From the NCBI GenBank assembly GCA_963703365.1, contig OY969815.1, forward strand, positions 3,080,577-3,144,576: a stretch of DNA of 64,000 bases. The letters are read 5' to 3'. Positions 1,945 through 29,935 of this stretch are shown one piece after another. The notes beneath the pieces were generated by a model. It was not told the DNA's origin. It saw only the letters and a list, made by a program, of their open reading frames with translations, and searched no databases. This stretch comes from an uncultured Bacteroidota bacterium (GTDB lineage Bacteria; Bacteroidota; Ignavibacteria; Kryptoniales; JAKASW01). The first letter of the stretch is position 1. Every line of letters starts with the position of its first letter. The position numbers and the translations under genes were made by a program.

Positions 1945-2421
1945 CTACTTACTTTCTACTGCCATTCCATACATATCGAGCAATTGCAAGCGAGTGGCTT
2001 CAAGACGCCGTTCCAGCACTGCGGAAAATCTGCGCAACATTTCATATCCGAAGTGATGATCTGTTTCGCATTTCGTCCGTAAGCAAGTCGCATCTATTGC
2101 GAAGACATGAACTCCTTCCACCGCAACAGCATCGAAATGCCGGCGGTAGGGAGAAATAAGCCAAGACCATCCGAGTACTTCACCCGGTCCCAACGTCTGT
2201 ACCCTGATTTGCCCTTTCTCGCCGGCTTGAATCTCAAGTGCAACCCTGCCGCTTCGAATAAGGTAAAAGTTTGTTGCGTTTTCTCCTTCGCGGAATAAAC
2301 GTGCCCCTTCTTGAAGTACAACATTGGAAGCGCATGACGTCAAGGTTTCGATTAGGTCATCGCTCGTGTCGCTTAGGAAAGGATGCTTACGCAGAGATTG
2401 AGACAGATCGTGCTGTTCCAT
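1945..2421 (-). CDS. Standalone cyclic-nucleotide-binding (Crp/cNMP effector) domain protein with no HTH
   Basis: The 158-aa product contains ...VLQEGARLFREGENATNFYLIRSGRVALEI...GPGEVLGWSWL..., typical of the cNMP-binding beta-roll. An AAGGAG RBS precedes the ATG. The gene is embedded in the hydrogenase operon. Confidence 0.75.
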   Translation of the reverse strand: MEQHDLSQSLRKHPFLSDTSDDLIETLTSCASNVVLQEGARLFREGENATNFYLIRSGRVALEIQAGEKGQIRVQTLGPGEVLGWSWLISPYRRHFDAVAVEGVHVFAIDATCLRTKCETDHHFGYEMLRRFSAVLERRLEATRLQLLDMYGMAVESK

Positions 2422-2439
2422 GATATTCTCCTTCTTATC

Positions 2440-3579
2440 TTATTTTTCTGTACCTCTTAGAGCATTTATTTCGGCCGTTACGTCAATGCCGACAGGACAC
2501 CACGAGATGCATCTTCCGCATCCCACACATCCGAACACGCCAAACTGGTCCATCCATGATGAAAATTTGTGCGTCAACCATTGCCGGTAACGGGACTTCG
2601 TAGTAATGCGGAAATTCCCGCCTGCAACTTTAGAAAAATCCATGGTAAAGCATGAATCCCATCTTCTCAATCGCTCTGCGTTTTGACCCGACAAATCGGT
2701 TACGTCTTCGAGCGTGGAGCAGAAACAGGTCGGACAGACCATGGTGCAATTGCCGCAAGACAGACAGCGTTTAGCCACATCGTCCCAGTGAGAGCTTTCG
2801 AGATTATCCGAAAGAAACTTGGGCAGGTCTTTAGTCTTCAGCAATTTCTTCATTTTATTTTCAGCGCGGCAAATAAGCTTGTCGGCTTCCTCAACTTCTT
2901 CCTTCGTGGCTGCAGGTGTTTTGATCTGTTCCATGATCATAGACCCGCGTTCGCTACCGATTTCAGTGAGGAAGTAGTGATCGCCGTTGGTGAGAACTTC
3001 CGTCATGGCAAGGTCAAATTTCTCTTTTGCCTTCGGTCCTGCATTCATCGAGGCGCAAAAACAAGTTCCGCCTGCATCGGTGCAATTAACCGCAACAACA
3101 AAAGCATTTTCTCTTAATCGTTTATAGTATTGGTCTGGATAATTATCGGAATCGAACACCATGTCCTGGATTAAAATTGCACTAAGTTCGCACGGCCGTA
3201 CCCCGATGAAAGCATACTTGATATTGGGATCCTGGTCGCCGGATATTTCGAGAGTTTTCCCGCTTTTTTTAATCGAGAATAATTTTCTATGAGGCGGATC
3301 GAGAAAACGTTTCCATGACTGCGGTGCAGCATGAAAGCCGAAAAATTTCTGTTTGTTTTGCTTCACGAGCCGATAAGTTGACGGCGCTTGCTCGTCTGTC
3401 CAGCCCATCGGTAGTTCGTTGGTGCCGTCGATCTTGTCGTAAACGATTGCTCCGTCTCGAAAAACCGGACCTACGGTCATGTAACCATCTTTTTGGAGTG
3501 CAGTGAATAGCTGTTGAAAATTTTTGTGGCTTAGCTTGAGAATTTTGTCCATGGTAGCAAACAGTTTTGTCGTATTCAC
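2440..3579 (-). CDS. Hydrogenase beta subunit: 4Fe-4S dicluster protein (AsrA/HydB-like)
   Basis: It has two ferredoxin-type motifs, CLSCGNCTMVCPTCFC and CVGCGRCISWCP. It is the first gene of the minus-strand operon. The start is either GTG at 3579 or ATG at 3552. Confidence 0.8.
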   Translation of the reverse strand: MNTTKLFATMDKILKLSHKNFQQLFTALQKDGYMTVGPVFRDGAIVYDKIDGTNELPMGWTDEQAPSTYRLVKQNKQKFFGFHAAPQSWKRFLDPPHRKLFSIKKSGKTLEISGDQDPNIKYAFIGVRPCELSAILIQDMVFDSDNYPDQYYKRLRENAFVVAVNCTDAGGTCFCASMNAGPKAKEKFDLAMTEVLTNGDHYFLTEIGSERGSMIMEQIKTPAATKEEVEEADKLICRAENKMKKLLKTKDLPKFLSDNLESSHWDDVAKRCLSCGNCTMVCPTCFCSTLEDVTDLSGQNAERLRRWDSCFTMDFSKVAGGNFRITTKSRYRQWLTHKFSSWMDQFGVFGCVGCGRCISWCPVGIDVTAEINALRGTEK

Positions 3580-3836: not shown

Positions 3837-5798
3837 ATGGCGCAGAAAGACACCGGCGGGTCGGAGAAGAGTCGGTTACAGAATGCCCAATCAGATGGGG
3901 GTAACAATAAAAATCTTGGTGGCGAATTTTTTTATCCAGCGCCGGAAGTTGTCGCCCAGGCAAATGTGCAAAACCCTGAGTCGGTTTACAAGGAAGCGGA
4001 GACGGACCTTGAAGGCTTTTGGAGCAGACGAGCAAGCGAACTTGAGTGGTACAAGAAATGGGACAAAGTCCTTGACGATTCGAACAAGCCGTTTTATAAA
4101 TGGTTTGTCGGCGGCAAAACAAATATTGTCCTTAATGCACTCGATCGTCATGTGAAGACATGGCGACGGAACAAACTCGCTCTGATCTGGGAGGGGGAGA
4201 ACGGAGATCTGCGGACATTTTCATATCACGCTTTGAACAGGGAAGTCTGCCGGTTCGCGAACGTGCTGAGAAGTATGGGAGTGGGGAAAGGAGACAGGGT
4301 AACGATTTATATGCCTCGAATTCCCGAAACGGTGATTGCCATGCTTGCAACTGCGAAGATCGGTGCAATACACTCCGTAGTTTACGGGGGCTTTTCCGTA
4401 GAGGCACTTCATGGCAGGATAGAAGACAGCGAATCCAAAGTAATTGTTACTGCCGATGGAGGGTACATGAATGGAAAGACAGTCGAGCTGAAGAAGATTG
4501 TGGATGAAGCTTTGAAACGCACCGCTGCACCGGAGATAGTGATTGTCGTGAAGCGCACAGGCAAAGAAGTCCCGATGGAAGCGGGACGCGATTATTGGTA
4601 TCATGAGCTAATGAACCTGCCGCTGAGCCGCAACGGCGGCAAATCTCCCACAGAAGAAATGGATGCCGAAGATCCTCTTTACATTTTATATACATCTGGC
4701 ACTACCGGGAAGCCGAAAGCAATTCTTCACACTCACGGCGGGTATATGGTCGGGACGTATTCAACTCTGAAAGACGTATTCGATCTGAAAGAAGAAGATC
4801 GATGGTGGTGTACTGCCGACCCTGGCTGGGTTACCGGACATTCCTATATTGTCTATGCGCCGCTCGTGGCGGGAGCAACTTCGTTTATGTATGAAGGCGC
4901 ACCAACGTATCCATATCCAGATAGATGGTGGACGATGATAGAAAAGTATGGCATCACGGTTTTCTATGCGACGCCGACTGCGATCCGCGGATTGATGCGA
5001 TATGGCGAGGCATGGCCGAACCGGCACGATCTTTCTACGCTGAGATTGCTCGGCTCGGTCGGTGAGCCCATAAATCCGGAAGCATGGCGGTGGTATCACA
5101 GAGTCGTCGGTAAAGAGAAATGTCCTATCATGGATACGTGGTGGCAAACCGAAACGGGAATGTTTATGATTGCGCCATTGCCGACGACACCGCTTAAACC
5201 CGGTTCGGGAACGAAGCCGTACTTCGGCGTGCAGGCAGACGTGGTTGATGAGGCAGGCAATCCCGTGAAACTCGGTGAAGAGGGCTATTTGGTTCTAAAG
5301 CGACCATGGCCTGCAATGCTGCGAACAATTTACAAAGACCCCGATCGATACGTCAGCACTTACTGGAGTAAATTCCCCGGGTATTATTTTGTAGGTGACT
5401 CTGCGAGAAAGGATGAAGATGGATATTTCTGGATAATCGGCAGGGTCGACGACGTTATAAAAGTCAGCGGCTACAGACTTGGCACGGCAGAACTCGAGTC
5501 AGCGTTTGTCAGCCATCATGCCGTTGCTGAGGCCGCAGTAATTGGACTTCCGCACGAAATAAAAGGGATTGCAATTCATGCATATGTAACTTTGAAAGCC
5601 GGATTCGAAGGGAGCGAAGATTTAGCAGAAGAATTAAGGCAGCATGTGGCTCATGAAATGGGACCGATTGCAAAACCCGAGAAAATAAATTTCACGACTT
5701 CGCTTCCGAAAACGCGGAGCGGGAAAATCATGCGGCGGGTCTTAAAAGCACGGGCACTTGGAATGCCGGAAGGTGATCTAAGTACATTGGAAGAATAA
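3837..5798 (+). CDS. acs: Acetyl-CoA synthetase (AMP-forming)
   Basis: The 653-aa product has the [14 protein letters not shown]-binding motif, a WWQTETG motif and a C-terminal [11 protein letters not shown] motif. An AAAAGGAG RBS precedes the start. Confidence 0.95.
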
Positions 5799-5842
5799 AC
5801 CGTCCAACAATTTCCTCTGTGCTATCGTCGCTGCTCATTCCG

Positions 5843-6514
5843 TCAGCTTGAGCCGGTGGTTAGGCGTTTTCGCTTTTGCTTTGCAATATATTTATTGTGA
5901 AGATCGATAAATAATTTCATTAAGCCATAGGCATCTGTTAAACACTGATTTTGCATTTTTTCTGTTACTGCAAATATATTGCCCCTATGAATCAACCTAT
6001 TGCGATTATGACGCAACTTTTGGTAAAAGGAAATAATATTTGTATAGTCGATTCTTGATTGCCGACTTAACTGTTTTACAATGTCACTGAATTTAGTATC
6101 CGTAAGATTATGGAATAAAGAGAGCTTTTCGGTCATCGAATCACTTGATAATAATCTATCTTGCAAAGCATCAGGAATATTTTGTTTGATCATCAGATGA
6201 CTGAGGAAATCATCAAATAGCACTTCACCAAGTGAAGAATAAAAAACAACAATCGCCAATCTGTGGTTTGAATTTAATGAAGGGAATATCTTAAGATTAT
6301 CAGAAGGGCTTGCATTTATGTTGTGGTATTCAAGCATAAGATGAGCAAGACTCATAACACCAAAAGTGAAGAATTGTATCGTACCCTTACTTCGGCCTTT
6401 GCAGCGTGAGCAATTAAAGCCAATACTAATCGTGACATATCCGCAAGTCTTGCACCTATGGCTATTGGTCACAATATGCTTAATTGAATGACTCTCATAT
6501 TCTGGAATAGACAT
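5843..6514 (-). CDS. Hypothetical protein: N-terminal CxxC-x10-CxxC zinc ribbon plus a C-terminal HEPN-like region with an RNxxxH motif
   Basis: The 223-aa product has C21xxC24...C35xxC38. The motif RNRLIH (aa 171-176, nt 5987-6004) fits the HEPN Rx4-6H signature. GC is about 30% against about 45% in the flanks. Confidence 0.6.
   Translation of the reverse strand: MSIPEYESHSIKHIVTNSHRCKTCGYVTISIGFNCSRCKGRSKGTIQFFTFGVMSLAHLMLEYHNINASPSDNLKIFPSLNSNHRLAIVVFYSSLGEVLFDDFLSHLMIKQNIPDALQDRLLSSDSMTEKLSLFHNLTDTKFSDIVKQLSRQSRIDYTNIISFYQKLRHNRNRLIHRGNIFAVTEKMQNQCLTDAYGLMKLFIDLHNKYIAKQKRKRLTTGSS
5857..5872. repeat. Left arm of a 16-bp perfect inverted repeat (TGGTTAGGCGTTTTCG)
   Basis: It is the exact reverse complement of 6532-6547. 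It lies inside the last codons of the 223-aa ORF. Confidence 0.9.
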
Positions 6515-6531
6515 ATATCAATCCTAAAACA

Positions 6532-6547
6532 CGAAAACGCCTAACCA
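6532..6547. repeat. Right arm of a 16-bp perfect inverted repeat (CGAAAACGCCTAACCA)
   Basis: It is the exact reverse complement of 5857-5872. It lies 18 nt upstream of the ORF's start codon. Confidence 0.9.
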
Positions 6548-6653
6548 TAATTAGCCTGCCATATATCGGCATAACATTCCGGCAGTAAGAATGCTATTTG
6601 TGACCATGACATTTGTCCTTGTCTCCTTTCTAAAGTGCTCCGCGTACGATAAT

Positions 6654-7280
6654 TCATTTTGTTTTCCTAAACATTAGCACAACTTCTCCTGCAACGAAGA
6701 ACTGTCTGTCATCAGGAGAAAAGCTCAGCACCTGGTAAGATTTATTTGAAGGTTTAAGATGCATTTTCTCATTTGCCAATTCGAAAAATCTTACGATCAA
6801 AACTCCGGCGGCACTTCCGAGAACAAGCGAGTTCTGTTCCGGCGTCACAACTCTTCTGCATATTACATAATCGCCTTTAAATAATCCCACGAGGTTCATC
6901 CCGTCGTCTGAAACTTTCACAGCGAAAAGTTCGCCTTCGGGTAGAAGCTTCGCGTCAAAGTGGAGCACATCTATAATGTTCGAGAAAATAATTTCTCGCG
7001 ATTCAATTCTTAAGACGACTGGAATAGTCCGAACCGATGGCGGCAGATCAGGATTTGCGAGTTCTGTTTTCGGAAGATTAATTCCACGTGAGCGCCCTGC
7101 CTCGCGTTCGATGTACCCCTTTCTTTCAAGTGCCTTCAACAAGTCGCTGACCGCTCGCGTCGAGCTGATTCCCATCTGTGCACCCAATTCACGGAATGTC
7201 GGCGGCTTCGAGTGATCTTTAATATATCGCCGAATGAACTCGAGCGCCTCACCTTGCCTTTTCGTTAATCCTCTCGCCAT
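6654..7280 (-). CDS. LexA-family protein (LexA wHTH plus S24-like fold) with apparently degenerate autoproteolysis residues
   Basis: The N-terminus LTKRQGEALEFIRRYIKDHSKPPTFRELGAQMGISSTRAVSDLLKALERKGYIE...SRGI matches the LexA DNA-binding domain. The C-terminal half aligns by eye with E. coli LexA but differs at key positions (see findings). I chose the start at MARGL (7280). Confidence 0.8.
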   Translation of the reverse strand: MARGLTKRQGEALEFIRRYIKDHSKPPTFRELGAQMGISSTRAVSDLLKALERKGYIEREAGRSRGINLPKTELANPDLPPSVRTIPVVLRIESREIIFSNIIDVLHFDAKLLPEGELFAVKVSDDGMNLVGLFKGDYVICRRVVTPEQNSLVLGSAAGVLIVRFFELANEKMHLKPSNKSYQVLSFSPDDRQFFVAGEVVLMFRKTK

Positions 7281-7432
7281 CAGAAAGTAAATTACACAAC
7301 ACAAGTTTAGCGGTCAAGAAGCATAAAGTACTTTTATTTGCTTTGTTTAGTATAAATATTATAACGGCAGTATATATGAAAAACACTTGAAATCTCTGAG
7401 AATTCAAGGGGATTTTTCTCGGTGATATTTAG

Positions 7433-7500
7433 GTGGGAAATTGTGACAAAAAACTTCTTGACTTTTGGAGCGTATTGGTTAAATTTCCAACGTGGTGGGG
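7433..7500 (+). promoter_or_regulatory. Candidate mraZ/dcw promoter-operator region with GTGGGR direct repeats
   Basis: GTGGGA lies at 7433-7438. GTGGGG lies at 7485-7490 and 7495-7500 (10-bp phase, GTGGGGAAAAGTGGGGAAGT). A TTGACT-N16-TAAATT element lies between them (7459-7486). Confidence 0.4.
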
Positions 7501-7581
7501 AAAAGTGGGGAAGTCCCCGATTTTTCCCTCGTTTACTAAAAAAATGTGTCCGAAGAATCTTTCGGAAAATTTAAGAGGAAC

Positions 7582-8040
7582 ATGTCGTCATTTAAAGGCC
7601 GGTACGAATACGTTTTAGATTCCAAAGGACGACTCAGCATTCCGGCGAAGTTGCGGAAAAGTCTTTCGTCGGAAGCAAACGACACTTTCGTTGTAACTCG
7701 TGGAGTCGAAAAATGTTTGTATGTTTATCCCCTCGACGAATGGCGGCAGCTCGAAGAAAAGCTCCGTTCCCTCAACCAGTTTCTGGAAAAACATAGATAC
7801 TTCACCAGAACACTTCTCATGTGGGCGTCGGAAGAATTTCCCTTGGACTCACAATCACGCATAACAATTCCCAAAACTTTACTCGAATTTGCTGAGATCG
7901 AAAAGGAAGTCGTGATCATCGGCGCTCTCGAAAGAATTGAACTCTGGAACCCGCAGACCTTCAACGAATATTTAAATTCGCAGCCTGAGAATTACGCGAA
8001 CGTTGTCGAACAAATTATGGCTGTAAATGTCGGCAAATAA
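7582..8040 (+). CDS. mraZ: Transcriptional regulator MraZ
   Basis: MSSFKGRYEYVLDSKGRLSIPAKLR and a second SpoVT/AbrB-like half (DSQSRITIPKTLL) are present. An AAGAGGA RBS precedes ATG 7582. It is the first gene of the dcw cluster. Confidence 0.9.
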   Translation: MSSFKGRYEYVLDSKGRLSIPAKLRKSLSSEANDTFVVTRGVEKCLYVYPLDEWRQLEEKLRSLNQFLEKHRYFTRTLLMWASEEFPLDSQSRITIPKTLLEFAEIEKEVVIIGALERIELWNPQTFNEYLNSQPENYANVVEQIMAVNVGK

Positions 8041-8957
8041 TGAACATTTATCACGAGCCAGTGTTGCTCAAGGAGAGCGTGGATTTCTTGGTCACTGACT
8101 TGGGTGGAACATACGTTGACGCAACTTTCGGCGGCGGCGGTCACTCCCGCGAGCTTCTCTCCCGACTACACCATAATGCGCGTGTCTTCGCCTTCGATGT
8201 TGACGAAAATTCACAGCGAGTTGCAAATGAGATTTCCTTGTCGGACGATAGACTGTTGTTTGTCAAAAAGAATTTTTCTCATATTGGAGATATTTTCGAG
8301 GATAAGAATTTAAAATCAGCCGCCGGATTTTTATTCGATCTCGGCGTGTCATCTTACCAGATAGATAATGAGCCTGGATTCAGCTACAGGCGCGATGAGA
8401 AACTTGATATGCGCTTGGATAAAGATCTCAAAACTTCGGCCTATGAAGTAATAAACTTGTACAATGTCGAAGCACTTGCGGAAGTGTTCAGCAAGTACGG
8501 CGAAGAACCGCGCTCACGTGCGCTTGCGAGAGTTGTCGTGAAACATCGGGAAAAAAACAAGATTAAAACGACTTTGCAATTTTCGGAGATCGCCGGAAAG
8601 GGTTGCGGAAAATCCGCGAAAACTTTGTCGAGAATTTTCCAGGCGATTCGCATCGAAGTGAATAAAGAACTCGATTCGCTTTCCGAAGCGTTGGAAGCGG
8701 CCGTGAGTCTCGCATCTCGCGGCGGCAGAGTAGTCGTAATTTCTTATCAGTCACTTGAAGATAGAATTGTCAAGGAAAAATTCAAGTATGAAGCTGCGGC
8801 ATGTGTTTGTCCGCCGCAGATGATTATTTGTACCTGCGGTAAGATTCCCCGTGTCAAAATTCTTACACGAAAGCCTGTTTTGCCGAATGAAGTTGAAGTC
8901 ATGCGCAATCGCAGAGCTCGAAGTGCGAAATTGAGAGTAGTCGAAAAAATTATATGA
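8040..8957 (+). CDS. rsmH: 16S rRNA (cytosine1402-N4)-methyltransferase RsmH
   Basis: HEPVLL...DATFGGGGHS...FDLGVSSYQID motifs are present. Its position after mraZ is conserved. Confidence 0.95.
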   Translation: MNIYHEPVLLKESVDFLVTDLGGTYVDATFGGGGHSRELLSRLHHNARVFAFDVDENSQRVANEISLSDDRLLFVKKNFSHIGDIFEDKNLKSAAGFLFDLGVSSYQIDNEPGFSYRRDEKLDMRLDKDLKTSAYEVINLYNVEALAEVFSKYGEEPRSRALARVVVKHREKNKIKTTLQFSEIAGKGCGKSAKTLSRIFQAIRIEVNKELDSLSEALEAAVSLASRGGRVVVISYQSLEDRIVKEKFKYEAAACVCPPQMIICTCGKIPRVKILTRKPVLPNEVEVMRNRRARSAKLRVVEKII

Positions 8958-9346
8958 GCGAGAAACTCGATAAACCTGGTGAACAAAAAGAGCAGAAGGT
9001 CACAGGACCCCCTTCGGGGAAGCGTTCGTCACCGACCGTTTCCAAATTCATTTTTGTATTAGGCGGAGTTGTAGCAGTGCTTCTCTTAATCGTCAATAAC
9101 AGCGTAACGGTTGACAGGTTAGCGAGCGATATAGGGTTGCTTGAGTCTGCATATTCGCAAATAAAATTTCAGAATGATTCATTGCAAGCCGAGCTGAAGA
9201 GACTTTCGAGTGCAGAAAGGATTACACAAATCGCTTCCGAAAAACTTGGACTCGCATACAGCAGCCAGTCTCTCGATCAAATCGGGATCGACAAAAGTAA
9301 ATTGGACAAAGCTGAAGAACAAGATGCAAGAGACACAACAAAGTAA
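8954..9346 (+). CDS. ftsL: Cell division protein FtsL-like (single TM plus coiled coil)
   Basis: The 130-aa product has one TM helix (FIFVLGGVVAVLLLIV) followed by a heptad-like region. Its position between rsmH and ftsI is conserved. Confidence 0.7.
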   Translation: MSEKLDKPGEQKEQKVTGPPSGKRSSPTVSKFIFVLGGVVAVLLLIVNNSVTVDRLASDIGLLESAYSQIKFQNDSLQAELKRLSSAERITQIASEKLGLAYSSQSLDQIGIDKSKLDKAEEQDARDTTK

Positions 9347-15687: not shown

Positions 15688-17043
15688 TTGAGCAAACCGG
15701 AAAAAATAAAATCCGCGAGAGTGTCGGTGCTTGGTGCTGCGAGAAGCGGAATATCAACTGCGAAACTTTTGAAATCGCAAGGCGCTTACGTGTTCGTGAG
15801 CGATAAAAAGCTGAAAGAGGAAGCTGCTCAACAGATTCGAACACTAGAGAACTTAGGACTGGCGTATGAATTCGGTGCACACTCGGATAGAATTTTCGAT
15901 GCGGATTTCATCGTGATAAGTCCGGGTGTTCCATCAAACTTAAATCTGGTTCAACATGCTTTGAAAGTGGGCTTGAGCGTTTACAGCGAGGTCGAAGCTG
16001 CATCATGGTTTTGCCGCGCGCCCATAGTAGCGATAACCGGCTCGAACGGAAAAACCACTACGACAACTCTTACCGGCAAAATTTTCGAGAAGGCAGGATG
16101 GAAAACGGTTGTCGCAGGAAATATAGGTTTTCCACTTTCCGATTATGTTCTTGACGTCGATGAAAAATCCGTCGTAGTCGTCGAAGTGTCGAGTTTCCAA
16201 TTGGATCATATCGACACGTTCAAGCCCAAAGTTGCAGCGCTTTTAAACATAACGGCGGATCATCTTGATAGGTATGAAAACTACCAAGCTTACATGGATT
16301 CGAAGTTTAGAATTTTCATGAATCAAACTGTGAACGACTTCTCTATTTATAATTACGATGACGAAGCTGTCAGGAAATATTGCGAGGGCTTGGTGACGAA
16401 GAAAAATTGTTTCAGTGTTAAAGAGAAAATTTCCTGTGGAGCCTTTGTCGATGGCGATAAAGTGTTTCTTGCTGCTGATGGGAATCGGGAATTTCTGATC
16501 GATGCCAAGGAGATAAAAATCCGCGGCGCGCACAATTTATATAATTCTATCGCGTCATCGCTTGCAGCGAGAGCGATGGGAGTTTCTGTAGAAGTCATCG
16601 CGGATACTTTGCGAGAATTTCCGGGAGTGGAACATCGGCTTGAACCGGTTCGAGAGCTCAACGGCGTGGTATATGTTAATGATTCGAAGGCCACGAATGT
16701 CGATGCCGTGTGGTATGCGCTCGGAAGTTTTGAGTCGCCAATAGTTTTGATCGCTGGAGGCAAAGACAAAGGAAACGATTATTCGCCCCTCTTCGAACTT
16801 GTAAAGAAAAAAGTTCATGCGATGATTCTCATCGGTCAAGCAGCTACGAAGATGCAAAAAGAATTTTCGGACAAGACGATGTGCATCATGGCATCGTCCA
16901 TGGAAGAAGCTGTCTCAAGGGCGCAGCGTGAAGCGAAGAAAGGCGATGTGGTTCTCCTTTCGCCGGCGTGTGCGAGTTTCGATATGTTTCATGATTACGA
17001 GCACCGGGGGCGAGAATTTAAAAGATTGGTGATGGGGCTGTGA
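15688..17043 (+). CDS. murD: UDP-N-acetylmuramoylalanine--D-glutamate ligase
   Basis: It has a Rossmann-type N-terminus and the P-loop GSNGKTTTT. It uses a TTG start 2 nt after the mraY stop. Confidence 0.9.
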   Translation: MSKPEKIKSARVSVLGAARSGISTAKLLKSQGAYVFVSDKKLKEEAAQQIRTLENLGLAYEFGAHSDRIFDADFIVISPGVPSNLNLVQHALKVGLSVYSEVEAASWFCRAPIVAITGSNGKTTTTTLTGKIFEKAGWKTVVAGNIGFPLSDYVLDVDEKSVVVVEVSSFQLDHIDTFKPKVAALLNITADHLDRYENYQAYMDSKFRIFMNQTVNDFSIYNYDDEAVRKYCEGLVTKKNCFSVKEKISCGAFVDGDKVFLAADGNREFLIDAKEIKIRGAHNLYNSIASSLAARAMGVSVEVIADTLREFPGVEHRLEPVRELNGVVYVNDSKATNVDAVWYALGSFESPIVLIAGGKDKGNDYSPLFELVKKKVHAMILIGQAATKMQKEFSDKTMCIMASSMEEAVSRAQREAKKGDVVLLSPACASFDMFHDYEHRGREFKRLVMGL

Positions 17044-18212
17044 CGAAGAATTTGAAGCCGGCAGATAAGTGGTTTTTGTTCGCAGTGCTCTTACTCATGT
17101 TTATGAGTCTTGTTGTCGTTTATAGCGCAAGTGCATTCTGGTCCGAATTAAAATTCCAGAATCCGGCGTATCTTTTGCGAAGTCATCTTTTCAAAGTTTT
17201 TATTGGAATGATTCTTATTTTTACTGTCGCAAAATTTGATTACCACAAATTCGAGAAGTACGCTTCTCAGCTTCTTGTAATTTCCGGAATTCTTTTGATT
17301 GTTGCGCTTGGGCAGCGAGTGATAATAAAGGGTGCCGCTCGCTCGATTCATCTCGGCATGTTCAGCTTCGAGCCGTCGGAGGTCGCTCGGTTGGCGATTT
17401 TATTTTTCGTTGCGGCTTATCTTGTCATGAGTGTCGATACGTTAGACGATTACAGAACACTGATCAAACCTCTTGCGGCGACAACAATTATCGCCGGACT
17501 CATAGTTTTGCAGCCAAACTTCAGCACAGCTTTAATGATTTTTGCGGTTGTCGGAGTGACGCTCCTCGCAGGCGGCGCCAAGAAAAGTCACCTGGCGGTT
17601 CTCGTTGCCGGCGCGCTTTTAGTCGGCACATGTGCCATGATGTTCGAATCGTATCGTGTCGCGAGAGTCCAATCGTGGATGAAACACGGCTCGGGAAATT
17701 ATCAAGTTGAACAGTCCATAATAGGTTTCGGCAACGGCGGAATATTCGGCGTTGGACCCGGCAACAGCAGGCAGAGAAACTTATTTTTGCCGGAATCTTA
17801 CGGTGATTTTGTTTACTCGATCATCGGCGAAGAATACGGTTTGTGGGGATCGACTTTGGTGATGCTGTTATTCCTTTTTATCGCATTTCGTGGTACAGCC
17901 ATCGCTAAAAAAGCGCCCGACAGGTTTGGGTCCTTGCTCGCGATTGGAATAACGAGCGGGATTTGCTTGTATGCTTTCGTTAATGCAGGAGTTGCAACCG
18001 GACTTTTTCCCACCACAGGACTTCCAATGCCGTTCGTCAGCTATGGCGGTACTGCGATGATAATCAATTCGATTGCGGTCGGAATTATCTTGAATATATC
18101 GAAACAAATTCCAGAAAATGAAATTGTTCCTACGAAAGGAAAAGTTGCTCACGGGATATTTCGAACGAAAAAAATAAAAACCAGCGAGCCGGTCGTTGGG
18201 AGGGTTTACTAA
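17040..18212 (+). CDS. ftsW: Peptidoglycan glycosyltransferase FtsW (SEDS family)
   Basis: It is a 10-TM-like SEDS protein with a PESYGDFVYSIIGEE-type motif. Its GTG start overlaps the murD stop (GTGA). Confidence 0.9.
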   Translation: MTKNLKPADKWFLFAVLLLMFMSLVVVYSASAFWSELKFQNPAYLLRSHLFKVFIGMILIFTVAKFDYHKFEKYASQLLVISGILLIVALGQRVIIKGAARSIHLGMFSFEPSEVARLAILFFVAAYLVMSVDTLDDYRTLIKPLAATTIIAGLIVLQPNFSTALMIFAVVGVTLLAGGAKKSHLAVLVAGALLVGTCAMMFESYRVARVQSWMKHGSGNYQVEQSIIGFGNGGIFGVGPGNSRQRNLFLPESYGDFVYSIIGEEYGLWGSTLVMLLFLFIAFRGTAIAKKAPDRFGSLLAIGITSGICLYAFVNAGVATGLFPTTGLPMPFVSYGGTAMIINSIAVGIILNISKQIPENEIVPTKGKVAHGIFRTKKIKTSEPVVGRVY

Positions 18213-19330
18213 TGATACGAGTTGTCTTTGCCGGCGGAGGAACCGGAGGACATATTTTCCCGGCGGTAGCAATTGCAGAGAGTTTGATGGAGCAAAACTC
18301 GTCCATGTATCATACGGGCGGCGTTGACGTGATGTTTGTCGGAACGAAAAATAAAATTGAAGCTAGAATTGTTCCGCAGCTTGGCTACAAGTTTCGCACA
18401 ATATGGATCGGAGGATTTTCGCGAAAGTTCAAGCTGTCAAACTTTTTGCTCCCGGTTAAGATAATCGTTTCAGTTTTTCAATCGTTGAAACTTTTGCTTA
18501 CATACAAGCCGAATGTTGTCGTCGGAACTGGCGGATATGTTTCCGGCCCGGTGTGCGCTGCCGCCGTTATCACGAGAACTCCGATCGTCCTTCAGGAACA
18601 CAACAGCTATCCTGGCGCCATGACGAGAATGTTTGCGCCTTTCGCTCGTGAAATCCATATTGCATTTGAAACTTCCAAAAATTATTTCCAAAGACGCCGC
18701 AATCTTTTCGTGACAGGAAGCCCGGTCAGAAAGATGCCGAGGGCAAAGCGAGAGGAAGCACTGGACTTTTTCGGCTTAAGCGTAGGGAGACGAACCCTCC
18801 TTGTGACGGGCGGCAGTCTGGGAGCTGTAAAACTTAACAGCGCAGTATTAGAAATCGTTGACGATTTAATAAGTCGTAATTATCAGTTGATATGGCAGAC
18901 TGGCTCTGTTGATTTCGAAAGAATCAAAGAGAGCTGCGAAAAGAATCCGTCTATGATTTACGGACGAGTTGAAAAATTCATAGAAAGAATGGATCTCGCA
19001 TACTCGGCGGCTGACATTGCTGTCTGCCGAAGTGGCGCGACAACTATTGCCGAGCTTATTTATTTCAATATTCCCGCCGTAATTATTCCGTACCCCTATG
19101 CGGCAGCCAATCATCAAGTCGAAAATGCACGTGCCTTTGTCGGGAGCGGCGGCGCTGTCATGGTACAGGAATTCGAAATTGAGAAAAAGTTTAAAAGAGA
19201 GTTATTAGGAGTGATCGATAACCCCGCACAGCTCATTGCCATGCAGGAAAAGGTGAGGAAGTTGTCACACAATGATGCGGCGGAAGTTATTGCGAGATCG
19301 GTTTTAAGAATTGCGGGGGCAAATGCATAA
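18212..19330 (+). CDS. murG: UDP-N-acetylglucosamine--N-acetylmuramyl-(pentapeptide) pyrophosphoryl-undecaprenol GlcNAc transferase
   Basis: GGTGGHIFPAVAIAE and the C-terminal GT28 motifs (RSGATTIAEL) are present. Confidence 0.95.
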   Translation: MIRVVFAGGGTGGHIFPAVAIAESLMEQNSSMYHTGGVDVMFVGTKNKIEARIVPQLGYKFRTIWIGGFSRKFKLSNFLLPVKIIVSVFQSLKLLLTYKPNVVVGTGGYVSGPVCAAAVITRTPIVLQEHNSYPGAMTRMFAPFAREIHIAFETSKNYFQRRRNLFVTGSPVRKMPRAKREEALDFFGLSVGRRTLLVTGGSLGAVKLNSAVLEIVDDLISRNYQLIWQTGSVDFERIKESCEKNPSMIYGRVEKFIERMDLAYSAADIAVCRSGATTIAELIYFNIPAVIIPYPYAAANHQVENARAFVGSGGAVMVQEFEIEKKFKRELLGVIDNPAQLIAMQEKVRKLSHNDAAEVIARSVLRIAGANA

Positions 19331-27811: not shown

Positions 27812-29935
27812 TCATTTCAAGAGCAAGAGTTTCTTTGTCTGGCTGAAACTTCCCGTCTGGAGTCTGTAGAAGTACACACCGCTTGGCAGGTTGCTTCCTC
27901 TGAAAGTAACGGAATAGCTCCCCGCGTTCTGCCGTTCATTGACCAATGATTCCACTTCTCGTCCAAGCACATCGTACACTTTCAATGTGACAAAACTGTT
28001 AACTGGTAATTGATAACTGATCACCGTTGTCGGGTTGAATGGGTTTGGATAATTCTGGAATAGCGAAAACGTCGCCGGCGTATTACTCGGTGGTGGCTTA
28101 ACGACAGTTATCATTTCAGAAATAGGGCGTCTCCAGACAGTTTGGCCGAGAGCCACGTAAATGTCTGAGTTATCAGCGACAATAGAAGATACAGATCTAG
28201 ATGTTGAAGGTAAGCCTGTATTTACGGCAGTCCAACTTGTGTCGTCATTATTCAAAACATAGACGCCAATCGTTGTTCCGGCAAAAACATTTGTTCCGTG
28301 GACTGCCAAACCACTAACGGATGCAGGAAGCCCAGAGTCAATATATTCCCATTGTTCTCCTCCGTCCGTTGAGCGAAGAACTCCAGAGGAAGTCCCCACA
28401 AACATCGCAGAGTCTATAAACGCAATCGCGGAGATATATGGCGGACTTGCGTTCGGGGGAATGAAGATCCTTTGCCACGTCGCCCCCGTGTCCGCCGACG
28501 TCCAAAGCGCCCCACCAATAATCGCGTAAACGCTTTCCCGGTTGTTGGCAAGATCAGAAACAAGCGGAGTGTTTACTTGTGTCGATCTCCAGCTTGCACC
28601 ATCATTTGTCGAGAGGTATATGCCGGCATTAGTGTCAAGATCGTACACGGGAGTTATCCCAAGAAAAATATTCGTTCCGATTGCTGTAAGGGCGACAGGC
28701 AGTTCAAAGTTGGGAAACCCAGTATTCAACGGTGTTGTCCAGCTTATCCCGCCGTTGGTCGATTCGCAAACTCCTGTGTCATCAGTTGTATAAACAGCCG
28801 ATCCCGCTGTGGTAACAACCCTGTATCCAAATAGTGCGGGAATCCAGTTTACACCATCTCTCGATGAGGCATAAACGTAATAAATGCTAGTGGCAAAGAC
28901 AGTGTTTGCAATCGCAACGAGCGATTGAATGTTAGGAGTATTTTCAGTCATTCCTGAGTCGACCTCGTTCCAACTCGTCCCGTTGTCTGTCGAGCGATAT
29001 ATAGCACCGTCCATGACTCCCGCGAATACATTTGTTCCGATACACGCAAGAGCATTTACGTCATTTTCATGTAAACCATTATTGACAGAAGTCCAAGTTA
29101 CGCCGTAATCCCTTGAGAGAAAGACCCCTTGATCCCATGTCCCTGCGAAGATGTCCGTTCCACTTACGGCGAGACTGCTGATTTCATTGCTTGTAGAACC
29201 TGAATTCGCTGAAGACCATGTAGTTCCATTGTTGGTTGTTACAAAAACGCCATCACGTGTGCCCGCAAACAAATTTGTTCCGATCACGGCTAAAGAAGTA
29301 ACGGCACTATCTGTCAGTCCATAATTTACTGCACTCCAGCTGGTACCGGTGTTTGTCGAAAGATAAATGCCGCGATCAGTACCTGCAAAAACATCTTTAC
29401 CGCCAGCACCATTAGAGATAACAGCGAAAGCGTAGATTTTCCCGAAGTTAATTCCGCCGCTCACATTGTTCCAGCTTATTCCGTCATCCGTGCTAAGATA
29501 GATTTCCCCGACTCCGGCAGCAACCTCAACGCCTGCAAAGATATCGGAATCAGAAACACCGAGGGAATAAACGATGCCGAAAGTGATGAGATTGGTAAAT
29601 GGCAAGATCGATGTCCATGTTGTACCTTCATTTGTAGACAAACTGATCCCCCCTTGGGCAGCTCCGGCAAATATTTTTGTTCCGCTGACGGCAAAGGCAA
29701 ATATTTCACTGCCTGGCCACCCTACTAAATTGCCAGTCCAAGTATTGCCGTTATCAGTCGTAGAGTAAAGTGTCTCACTGCCACTGCCCGCGAGGATGAC
29801 TGAATCTACGGCCGCAAAACAAGTGATAAAAGAATAGTAGGGGCCCTTGGTTTGTACCCACTGCGCCTCAGACGTCACCGAAAGAAAACTCAAGCATACC
29901 GCATAGACAAAAACAAATGAGACAAGCTTCTTCAT
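27812..29935 (-). CDS. Secreted BNR/Asp-box repeat (Ycf48/sortilin-like double propeller) protein with a T9SS C-terminal sorting domain
   Basis: It has a signal peptide and about 13 S-x-D-x-G-x-(T/S)-W repeats at a ~45-50 aa period. The C-terminus NYPNPFNPTTVISYQLP...VYDVLGREV...GVYFYRLQ is typical of Por/T9SS tails. Confidence 0.8.
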   Translation of the reverse strand: MKKLVSFVFVYAVCLSFLSVTSEAQWVQTKGPYYSFITCFAAVDSVILAGSGSETLYSTTDNGNTWTGNLVGWPGSEIFAFAVSGTKIFAGAAQGGISLSTNEGTTWTSILPFTNLITFGIVYSLGVSDSDIFAGVEVAAGVGEIYLSTDDGISWNNVSGGINFGKIYAFAVISNGAGGKDVFAGTDRGIYLSTNTGTSWSAVNYGLTDSAVTSLAVIGTNLFAGTRDGVFVTTNNGTTWSSANSGSTSNEISSLAVSGTDIFAGTWDQGVFLSRDYGVTWTSVNNGLHENDVNALACIGTNVFAGVMDGAIYRSTDNGTSWNEVDSGMTENTPNIQSLVAIANTVFATSIYYVYASSRDGVNWIPALFGYRVVTTAGSAVYTTDDTGVCESTNGGISWTTPLNTGFPNFELPVALTAIGTNIFLGITPVYDLDTNAGIYLSTNDGASWRSTQVNTPLVSDLANNRESVYAIIGGALWTSADTGATWQRIFIPPNASPPYISAIAFIDSAMFVGTSSGVLRSTDGGEQWEYIDSGLPASVSGLAVHGTNVFAGTTIGVYVLNNDDTSWTAVNTGLPSTSRSVSSIVADNSDIYVALGQTVWRRPISEMITVVKPPPSNTPATFSLFQNYPNPFNPTTVISYQLPVNSFVTLKVYDVLGREVESLVNERQNAGSYSVTFRGSNLPSGVYFYRLQTGSFSQTKKLLLLK

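Follow-up and report, generated by a model that had tools for sequence, protein, structure and literature searches.

The locus considered here raises the question of what kind of element carries a lone gene enclosed by a perfect inverted repeat. It lies in a 64,000-nt stretch of contig OY969815.1 (referred to as the window), and consists of a single open reading frame (ORF) of low G+C content placed between lexA and acs in the chromosome of an uncultured bacterium, which its LexA protein assigns to a lineage of metagenome-assembled genomes of Candidatus Kryptoniota (the closest LexA proteins are 87-93% identical). The analysis points to a very probable answer, namely that the segment is an integron gene cassette located at an attI-like site (…CTAATTATG|GTTAGGC…), and probably a fossil single cassette of the SALIN type, without an adjacent integrase. 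The ORF (5843-6514, minus strand) encodes a protein of 223 amino acids with cysteines at positions 21, 24, 35 and 38, and with the motif RNRLIH at residues 171-176. It is bracketed by TGGTTAGGCGTTTTCG at 5857-5872 and the exact reverse complement of this sequence at 6532-6547, and the match lengthens to 21 nt at 90% identity. The proximal arm ends 17 nt ahead of the ATG, while the distal arm supplies the codons for RKRLT(T). A preliminary description of this DNA, made from the sequence alone, had reported the drop in G+C content between acs and a LexA-like gene, the CxxC-x10-CxxC and RNRLIH motifs, and the positions of the repeat, and all of these sequence-level claims were confirmed. The G+C content of the ORF is 0.353 (35.3% versus approximately 46-50% in the flanks), and the values for the cassette as delimited below (5809-6544), acs, lexA and the whole window are 0.359, 0.498, 0.461 and 0.461, respectively.

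The same description held the repeat to be very unlikely by chance. In the 64-kb window this is the sole perfect inverted 16-mer pair with arms at most 1.5 kb apart, whereas block-shuffled sequences contained 0.1 such pairs on average and never more than 3, and it ranks first of the four inverted repeats of at least 15 nt with arms at most 3 kb apart. Hence, a chance origin is unlikely, as had been claimed, although the window statistics by themselves leave some room for it. The 16-mer could also have been a common repeat unrelated to the gene, but no further copy was found within the 64-kb window, even when up to 3 mismatches were allowed. The non-chance nature of the repeat is decided by the repeat family found elsewhere, rather than by the statistics of the window.

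The two arms correspond to the R' and R'' halves of an integron attC site. The 5' arm (6532-6547, minus strand) consists of the R' core GTTAGGC (6545-6539) followed by seven cassette-specific nucleotides, GTTTTCG (6538-6532), and it is flanked by TG (6547-6546). The core fits the consensus GTTRRRY, 80 cassettes of the attC family described below begin likewise, and homology to relatives with other cargo stops within 1-2 nt of this boundary; the crossover is predicted between G6545 and T6544. The 3' arm (5857-5872, minus strand) consists of the cassette-specific CGAAAAC (5872-5866), the R'' inverse core GCCTAAC (5865-5859), and CA (5858-5857). Its core fits RYYYAAC, and was aligned to columns 1-9 of an alignment of 44 attC copies, which is described below. 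The complementarity of the two ends spans 14 nt counted from the G, and reaches 16 nt by coincidence with the flanking TG. The 3' arm opens the 5' half of an attC (5833-5865, minus strand), composed of R'' GCCTAAC, the spacer CACCGG, L'' CTCAAGCTGACGG, and then AATGAGC, which agrees with the consensus of the attC family apart from the covarying spacer. The stop codon and the last 9 residues of the ORF fall within this R''-L'' segment, so that the C terminus of the protein is an attC translation. An Rfam scan of 5300-7400 gave no match. Two other, imperfect inverted repeat pairs in the window, at 17397-17414/18340-18357 (18 nt, 94%) and 49032-49050/51042-51060 (19 nt, 89%), are without GTTRRRY or RYYYAAC cores, and the former falls inside two long co-oriented ORFs (17040-18212 and 18212-19330).

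The half-site led to a family of complete attC sites. The 27 nt after R'' (CTAACCA-N4-CTCAAGCTNACGGAAT) are unique in the window, with 0 occurrences expected by chance, and the post-R'' sequence CCA-N4-CTCAAGCTGACGGAAT is common to the window and to two relatives with other cargo at the same locus, L025 and L018. JGI metagenomes were searched with a 24-nt version of this sequence, CTAACCA-N4-CTCAAGCT-N-ACGG. The pattern was matched by at least 120 contigs, many of which carried several same-strand copies 400-1500 nt apart, with 13 copies in L103 (12.7 kb), 6 in L106, and 5 each in L062 and L088. The complete attC copies are 125-199 nt long, with a median of 152 nt, and they terminate in …CCGCAGCTTAGC-spacer-GTTAGGC. 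The structure of the family was assessed on the alignment of 44 diverse copies, in which the R box (R''/R') and the L box (L''/L') are paired in 90.7% of cells, versus 23-44% with slid partners. Three pairs beside the spacer show compensatory changes (CGC/GCG, CAA/TTG, GCA/TGC and CGG/CCG), and the bases C and A of the top-strand L'' are unpaired, which leaves the bottom strand with extrahelical G and T. An arrangement of R'', L'', L' and R' with extrahelical bases is the anatomy of integron attC sites. The outermost pairs of the R box are frequently mismatched in the arrays, because the bases past G|TT come from the next cassette. The array loci (L043-L162, many of them on contigs whose names begin with Ga0182021, Ga0182017 or Ga0265319) contain long cassette arrays, and their attC family is abundant and homogeneous, with several sub-types of the variable part.

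The arrays are accompanied by an integron integrase. In L107 an integrase gene (TIGR02249, 342 bits versus a cutoff of 265) is divergent from the first cassette, which is itself enclosed by a perfect 14-nt repeat, GTTAGGCGGCAAAA, and the end of the L074 contig encodes the C terminus of an IntI. The 21-nt left junction of the window cassette (GCAGGCTAATTATGGTTAGGC) is identical at 18 of 21 positions to the sequence that joins intI to the first cassette in L107 (GCAGTCTAATCATTGTTAGGC). The attI-like site at the head of the window cassette, GCAGGCTAATTATG|GTTAGG (6540-6559, minus strand), is also present in L018, similar sites are found in L060 and L136, and the pattern with 3 mismatches allowed has one unrelated match elsewhere in the window. 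The L107 integrase gene is located at 1982-2776 (plus strand) and the attI at approximately 1467; two direct repeats, GCAGTCTAAT, lie upstream of the attI core and resemble the integrase-binding direct repeats of known attI sites. The similar site in L060 (100-190) has a repeated TTACGCAGACT…TCCATGTAAT. A further similarity concerns another part of the window, where 27861-28423, the 3' end of a 707-amino-acid ORF (27812-29935, minus strand) whose last approximately 80 residues look by eye like a type IX secretion system (Por) tail, is 65-71% identical at the DNA level to parts of L099, L133 and L158. Hence, the hosts of the arrays may also belong to the Fibrobacteres-Chlorobi-Bacteroidetes group.

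If the window repeat were a split attC stem, other cassettes of the family would be expected to share it, with cassette-specific sequence beyond the core. For 80 cassettes bounded by two attC sites, the 5' end, starting from the G of R', was compared with the reverse complement of the R'' side of the same cassette. The data showed a median perfect run of 13 nt, with runs of up to 18 nt; the run reached at least 10 nt in 61 of the 80 cassettes and at least 14 nt in 27. When ends of different cassettes were paired, the median run was 6 nt, and 9.8% of the pairs reached at least 10 nt. With its 14 nt against the family median of 13, the window repeat is the normal look of an integrated cassette of this integron family.

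The preliminary description had offered three explanations of the repeat, the first of which, the termini of a small horizontally acquired cassette, was right in substance, although the kind of cassette went unrecognized, because the arms are attC halves and not transposon-like termini. A non-autonomous transposable element, either similar to miniature inverted-repeat transposable elements or derived from an insertion sequence, would also place a perfect 16-nt inverted repeat around a single low-GC gene carried as cargo, and would leave an empty site in relatives, as is observed. This origin is nevertheless extremely unlikely, since there is neither a target-site duplication nor a transposase, and the 16-mer has no second copy in the window. 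The arms are instead the GTTRRRY and RYYYAAC cores of a structured 125-199-nt repeat, which separates genes in same-strand arrays beside an integron integrase. Outside of the 7-nt core the repeat varies from cassette to cassette, whereas transposon ends would be conserved, and the empty site retains one core copy in the manner of an att site.

The occupancy of the locus was compared among relatives which retain lexA and an orthologous acs, a comparison that the preliminary description had suggested, and the cargo proved variable. The interval is empty in L022 (approximately 50 nt) and in L020 (approximately 100 nt), it contains a DJ-1/PfpI gene in L025, and it contains four small co-oriented ORFs in L018, one of which encodes a rifampin ADP-ribosyltransferase (Arr-ms, 5e-40). 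The left flank is common to the window, L025 and L018 up to …CTAATTAT, and the right flank from GCCTAACCA on, which means that the variable segment starts at the 5' arm and stops inside the 3' arm. In the empty L020 one copy of the attI-like core is retained, abutting the acs stop. Judged from these sequences, the site appears to behave as an attI-like attachment site. The four ORFs of L018 form a four-cassette array at the orthologous site (6625-9186), in which the Arr-ms cassette has its own short, 81-nt attC-like site (ATCTAAC…GTTAGGC, 8131-8211), and positions 7344-7549 are a 206-nt attC of the peat/wetland family; this is a cassette of the antibiotic-resistance type in an environmental Kryptoniota chromosome. 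In L022 the only element between lexA and acs is a strong bidirectional terminator hairpin (GGCCCAACAG…CTGTTGGGCC, 6625-6672), and no hairpin like it was seen in the gap between lexA and the cassette in the window.

The window cassette in its integrated linear form extends over 5809-6544 on the minus strand; it opens with the TT that follows the crossover G of GTTAGGC, and it closes immediately ahead of a putative downstream core, GTTGGAC. Its left boundary is the point where homology to L025 and L018 breaks, while the degenerate state of the attC makes the right boundary uncertain. The degenerate remainder of the attC (5799-5832, minus strand) has no recognizable L' box; it contains a possible R', GTTGGAC, at 5808-5802, and it abuts the stop codon (5796-5798) of acs, the convergent neighbor downstream of the cassette, which encodes acetyl-CoA synthetase (3837-5798, plus strand). 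The upstream neighbor, lexA (6654-7280, minus strand; LexA_DNA_bind and Peptidase_S24 domains), has the same orientation as the cassette and lies 109 nt from the attI-like core.

The orientation of the cassettes bears on the second explanation offered by the preliminary description, that the arms are sites for inversion. An invertase would flip the gene relative to an outside promoter and so act as an ON/OFF phase switch for a toxic gene; two identical sites in inverted orientation suit such enzymes, and any upstream promoter would be separated from the ribosome-binding site by one of the arms. All copies of the locus, however, in the window and in three other independent assemblies (L001-L003), have a single orientation, and the cassettes at this locus in L018 and L025 are likewise co-oriented with lexA. 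No recombinase gene is nearby, and the same geometry is found at most cassettes of the attC family whatever their cargo, as in the 61 of 80 unrelated cassettes described above. Hence, the probability that the repeat serves inversion is very slight indeed, no greater than that of a transposable element.

Another reading is that ordinary homologous recombination brought the gene to a hot spot between lexA and acs, with the repeat as a coincidental, conserved motif of the flanks. The interval is a general hot spot for accessory genes, beyond cassettes, since two relatives contain larger genes without recognizable att features, namely a Schlafen/AlbA_2 gene in L014 (433 amino acids, 6716-8017) and a carboxylesterase in L012 (549 amino acids, 6685-8334). 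The terminal attC remnant is also common to loci with different last cassettes. On the other hand, homologous recombination leaves the exact cores, the 14-nt cassette-specific complementarity and the attC half-site unexplained, as well as the attI-like junction and the L018 array. As the explanation of the repeat it is therefore quite unlikely, while it may be a later route of cassette exchange at this locus.

Several observations weigh against the assignment of the segment as an integron cassette. Instead of a complete R''-L''-variable-L'-R' attC, the 3' site in the window retains no more than an intact R''-spacer-L'' (5865-5833). With the covariance model of the family the window attC scored only 6.5 bits, so that the full site was not recovered, while L018 yielded a full attC at 30 bits (E 1.7e-6), and L025 a collapsed site at 12.9 bits. 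When folded as DNA, the window 3' site was no better than shuffles (z -0.31), and none of the integrated 3' sites of the window, L025 and L018 beat them; this poor folding at first seemed to speak against attC, and is now read as truncation or as competition by local hairpins. A standard integron finder would probably miss the window site, and the window cassette falls outside of the strict definition of a cassette as an ORF with a functional attC. The annotation of the 10 kb to each side of the gene includes no integrase, and tblastn with an approximate IntI1 sequence gave no match in the 64-kb window. Despite their different last cassettes, the loci of the window, L018 and L025 terminate in attC remnants that are degenerate in a similar way, which is unexpected under simple capture by attI x attC recombination, and exchange by homologous recombination inside the conserved attC half, or another route, may have operated at this locus. 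Homologues of the cargo protein were found in none of the 120 array loci, and neither were lexA or acs flanks, which indicates that the arrays are not the locus of the window. Two further points concern the cargo, and these are the lack of a significant match of the protein to a HEPN profile and the lack of a match to defence models, which are taken up below.

The integron cassette remains the preferred reading, and because the 3' attC is reduced to the R''-L'' half, the cassette is probably fixed and no longer excisable. The repeat is explained by the following sequence of events. The free circular cassette would have contained one attC, with an outer stem in which R'' (CGAAAAC plus GCCTAAC) would pair with R' (GTTAGGC plus GTTTTCG). 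An integration cut between the G and the TT of R' would place the R' side at the linear 5' end and keep the R'' side at the 3' end, so that the split outer stem would appear as the 16-nt perfect inverted repeat. An IntI integrase, encoded elsewhere or since lost, would have joined the folded bottom strand of the cassette attC to the attI-like site downstream of lexA, and this recombination would produce TTAGGCGTTTTCG… at the head of the cassette and R''… at its tail; the distal half of the attC would then have been lost by later decay. As there is no adjacent integrase, any IntI acts, or would have acted, in trans.

The cargo protein was compared with known families. The protein gave no significant match in Pfam, NCBIfam, PHROGs or PADLOC, and sequence and profile searches of the PDB, including those with the C-terminal domain alone, found no match. 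A first scan of metagenomes for close relatives of the protein found none, and a word-indexed homology search returned only the protein itself and a 91%-identical protein, P0002. An exhaustive HMMER search of 1.84 billion representatives, however, identified 210 relatives, mostly 210-240 amino acids long and 20-39% identical. Hence, it was fair of the preliminary description not to recognize the protein, which matches no curated family, but the protein is not an orphan, given its approximately 210 matching cluster representatives. Two alignments, of 61 and 43 members, show no variation at R171, H176 and N207. The four cysteines C21, C24, C35 and C38 are either invariant or conserved in at least 90% of the members, and N172 and C191 are fixed in one alignment and conserved to at least 90% in the other. 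The zinc ribbon and the R-N-x3-H motif thus characterize the family as a whole, rather than being chance features of a single member.

P0002 (203 of 223 residues identical) is encoded in a different metagenome (JGI sample 3300075153), on a contig of 1998 nt, where its gene is flanked by two further ORFs of the same orientation at array-like spacing. Its C terminus, RKRLTRRSS*, is the exact translation of the commonest attC variant (…CCTAACCAGGCGCTCAAGCTGA), and the gene is predicted to be followed by a complete attC of approximately 150 nt, with GTTAGGCGTTTTCG-like complementarity of the 5' and 3' ends. More distant homologues differ in this respect. A bracketing inverted repeat was found at none of eight homologue loci (L004, L006, L007, L008, L009, L163, L164 and L165), where the longest exact repeats were 7-10 nt, which is within the range of shuffles for the five loci that were shuffled. 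This indicates that the repeat belongs to the cassette and not to the gene family. Two of these loci contain 33%-identical homologues which start with GTTAGGCGTTGTCC 41 nt ahead of the ATG (L163:2525-2566 and L165:2344-2385), and which are low-GC insertions (0.50 versus 0.60) between Hdr-like (Fer4/CCG) genes and differing downstream genes, with no RYYYAAC seen at their 3' ends. Both may represent earlier cassettes of this gene family that have since decayed, which hints that the family travelled as cassettes before.

The preliminary description had recognized a zinc ribbon and a HEPN motif in the protein, and the family-wide invariance of both motifs agrees with this, while the support for a HEPN fold is weak and below thresholds. 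HEPN domains are expected to have a conserved Rx4-6H motif in which the arginine precedes a polar residue, and R171, N172 and H176 of the protein fit this pattern. Of 61 relatives, 12 matched HEPN_RiboL-PSP weakly and 6 matched HEPN_Apea, in every case below Pfam thresholds; P0011, for example, scored 19.7 bits for HEPN_RiboL-PSP versus a gathering score of 28.4. The AlphaFold2 model obtained with the family alignment (pLDDT 90.6, pTM 0.88) is confident and combines a small zinc ribbon of beta structure with an all-helical domain C-terminal to it, while the single-sequence model was uninformative (pLDDT 44). A Foldseek search with such a model had been proposed as a check, and the three PDB hits of the highest probability are all HEPN proteins, namely the HepT toxins 7bxo_F (probability 0.66, TM score 0.52 on the target) and 6m6w_B, and HI0074 (1jog_A), although no PDB hit reached E <= 0.001 and BFVD gave no match. 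Overall, a HEPN fold is regarded as likely.

The second proposed check, a comparison with defence models, did not bear out a defence assignment, as none of the PADLOC 2.0 models match the protein, and weak matches were seen in only 2 and 1 of 61 relatives. The neighborhoods of homologues contain a DUF6119 gene with a type IIG restriction enzyme, an AAA+/TIR pair, an integrase with ParA, and a reverse transcriptase on a TrwC-type conjugative element, while some homologues are lone low-GC insertions among GcvH/Hdr-like genes. The features of the family and these contexts point most probably to a latent RNase, which would serve as a single-gene effector of abortive infection or of the toxin type. 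In such a protein the zinc ribbon would sense a nucleic acid or a partner, and RNx3H would be the catalytic center of the predicted RNase.

Expression of the cassette could depend on lexA. Scans for σ70-type promoters and for terminators were uninformative, and the phylum may use other promoters. The cassette starts approximately 110 nt past the lexA stop, in the same orientation and with no terminator-like site between them, which makes read-through from lexA a plausible source of its expression. Transcription starting upstream of 6547 would include both arms in the transcript, and this concerns the third explanation of the preliminary description, in which a duplex between the 5' untranslated region and the end of the coding sequence would close the mRNA and limit the translation or the decay of the message of a toxic RNase. 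The 16-bp duplex would be stable, and attC sequences are transcribed in integron arrays. Equivalent repeats, however, are found at cassettes with unrelated cargo, so that the feature is generic and not gene-specific, and homologues of the protein at other loci lack it; Rfam gave no match, and DNA recombination explains the sequence fully. Hence, a dedicated role in RNA is very unlikely, and an RNA effect could be a by-product of the repeat at best. For the integron cassette itself a bolder proposal can be made, which we regard as rather unlikely: that the zinc-ribbon/RNx3H family would be a new abortive-infection RNase spreading as an integron cassette, that in this Kryptoniota clade the attI-like site downstream of lexA would be an integrase-less capture platform, and that the cassette would be transcribed by read-through from the SOS lexA promoter. 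If this were true, the SOS-regulated promoter would couple the expression of the cassette directly to DNA damage or infection.

These data suggest that a perfect repeat of 12-18 nt around a small low-GC gene, together with GTTRRRY and RYYYAAC cores, is diagnostic of an integron cassette, even when the attC has decayed and is missed by standard finders. They also document an attC family, abundant in wetland and peat metagenomes, together with its integrase, an attI-like capture site adjacent to lexA in the little-known phylum Kryptoniota, and an uncharacterized zinc-ribbon/HEPN-like family, which is a reasonable candidate for a compact defence gene. The unusual aspects are the host phylum, the lexA-adjacent attI-like site without intI, the decayed attC and the uncharacterized cargo family. 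These observations fit the recent evidence that integrons store phage-defence cassettes, and do not overturn the current understanding.

Similarly to HEPN RNases (PF18735, PF18739 and HepT, for example PDB 7bxo), the window protein has a predicted all-alpha domain with an invariant R-N-x3-H near the C terminus. Unlike them, it has no HEPN profile match and no MNT antitoxin partner, it has a fused N-terminal zinc ribbon with four cysteines, and the invariant LHN (205-207) and C191 are specific to its family. Integron cassettes encode many compact phage-defence systems, including those of the HEPN type (bioRxiv 10.1101/2024.07.02.601686; 10.1101/2024.07.02.601719). The window cassette resembles the BRiCs (bioRxiv 10.1101/2024.07.02.601719) and the defence cassettes of sedentary chromosomal integrons, such as the HEPN-type Esos and Abi_C-type Taranis (bioRxiv 10.1101/2024.07.02.601686), in being a small single-gene cassette with a putative HEPN-like effector, while the window protein has no PADLOC match. 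As with other defence cassettes, homologues of the protein are found in defence islands and on mobile elements.

Integrase-less isolated cassettes (SALINs) and small CALINs are common, and IntI-mediated insertion outside of integrons can give rise to them (PMC9024848; bioRxiv 10.1101/2022.09.11.507474, Loot et al.). The window differs from the usual SALIN in its uncultured Kryptoniota host, and in that the cassette occupies an attI-like site rather than a random attG, yet with lexA and not intI upstream. It differs from usual integron cassettes in its 3' attC, which is cut to the R''-L'' half, so that the element is probably immobile and falls under normal detection thresholds, and in the long attC family to which this attC belongs (median 152 nt), with outer stems of 12-18 bp. 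In other respects it agrees with integron cassettes and SALINs (IntegronFinder 2, PMC9024848): the window contains a lone, promoterless-looking ORF with no adjacent integrase, with GTTRRRY at the 5' boundary and RYYYAAC opening a structured, imperfect palindrome at the 3' end, the members of its attC family form same-strand arrays beside IntI, and the cargo varies at one attachment site.

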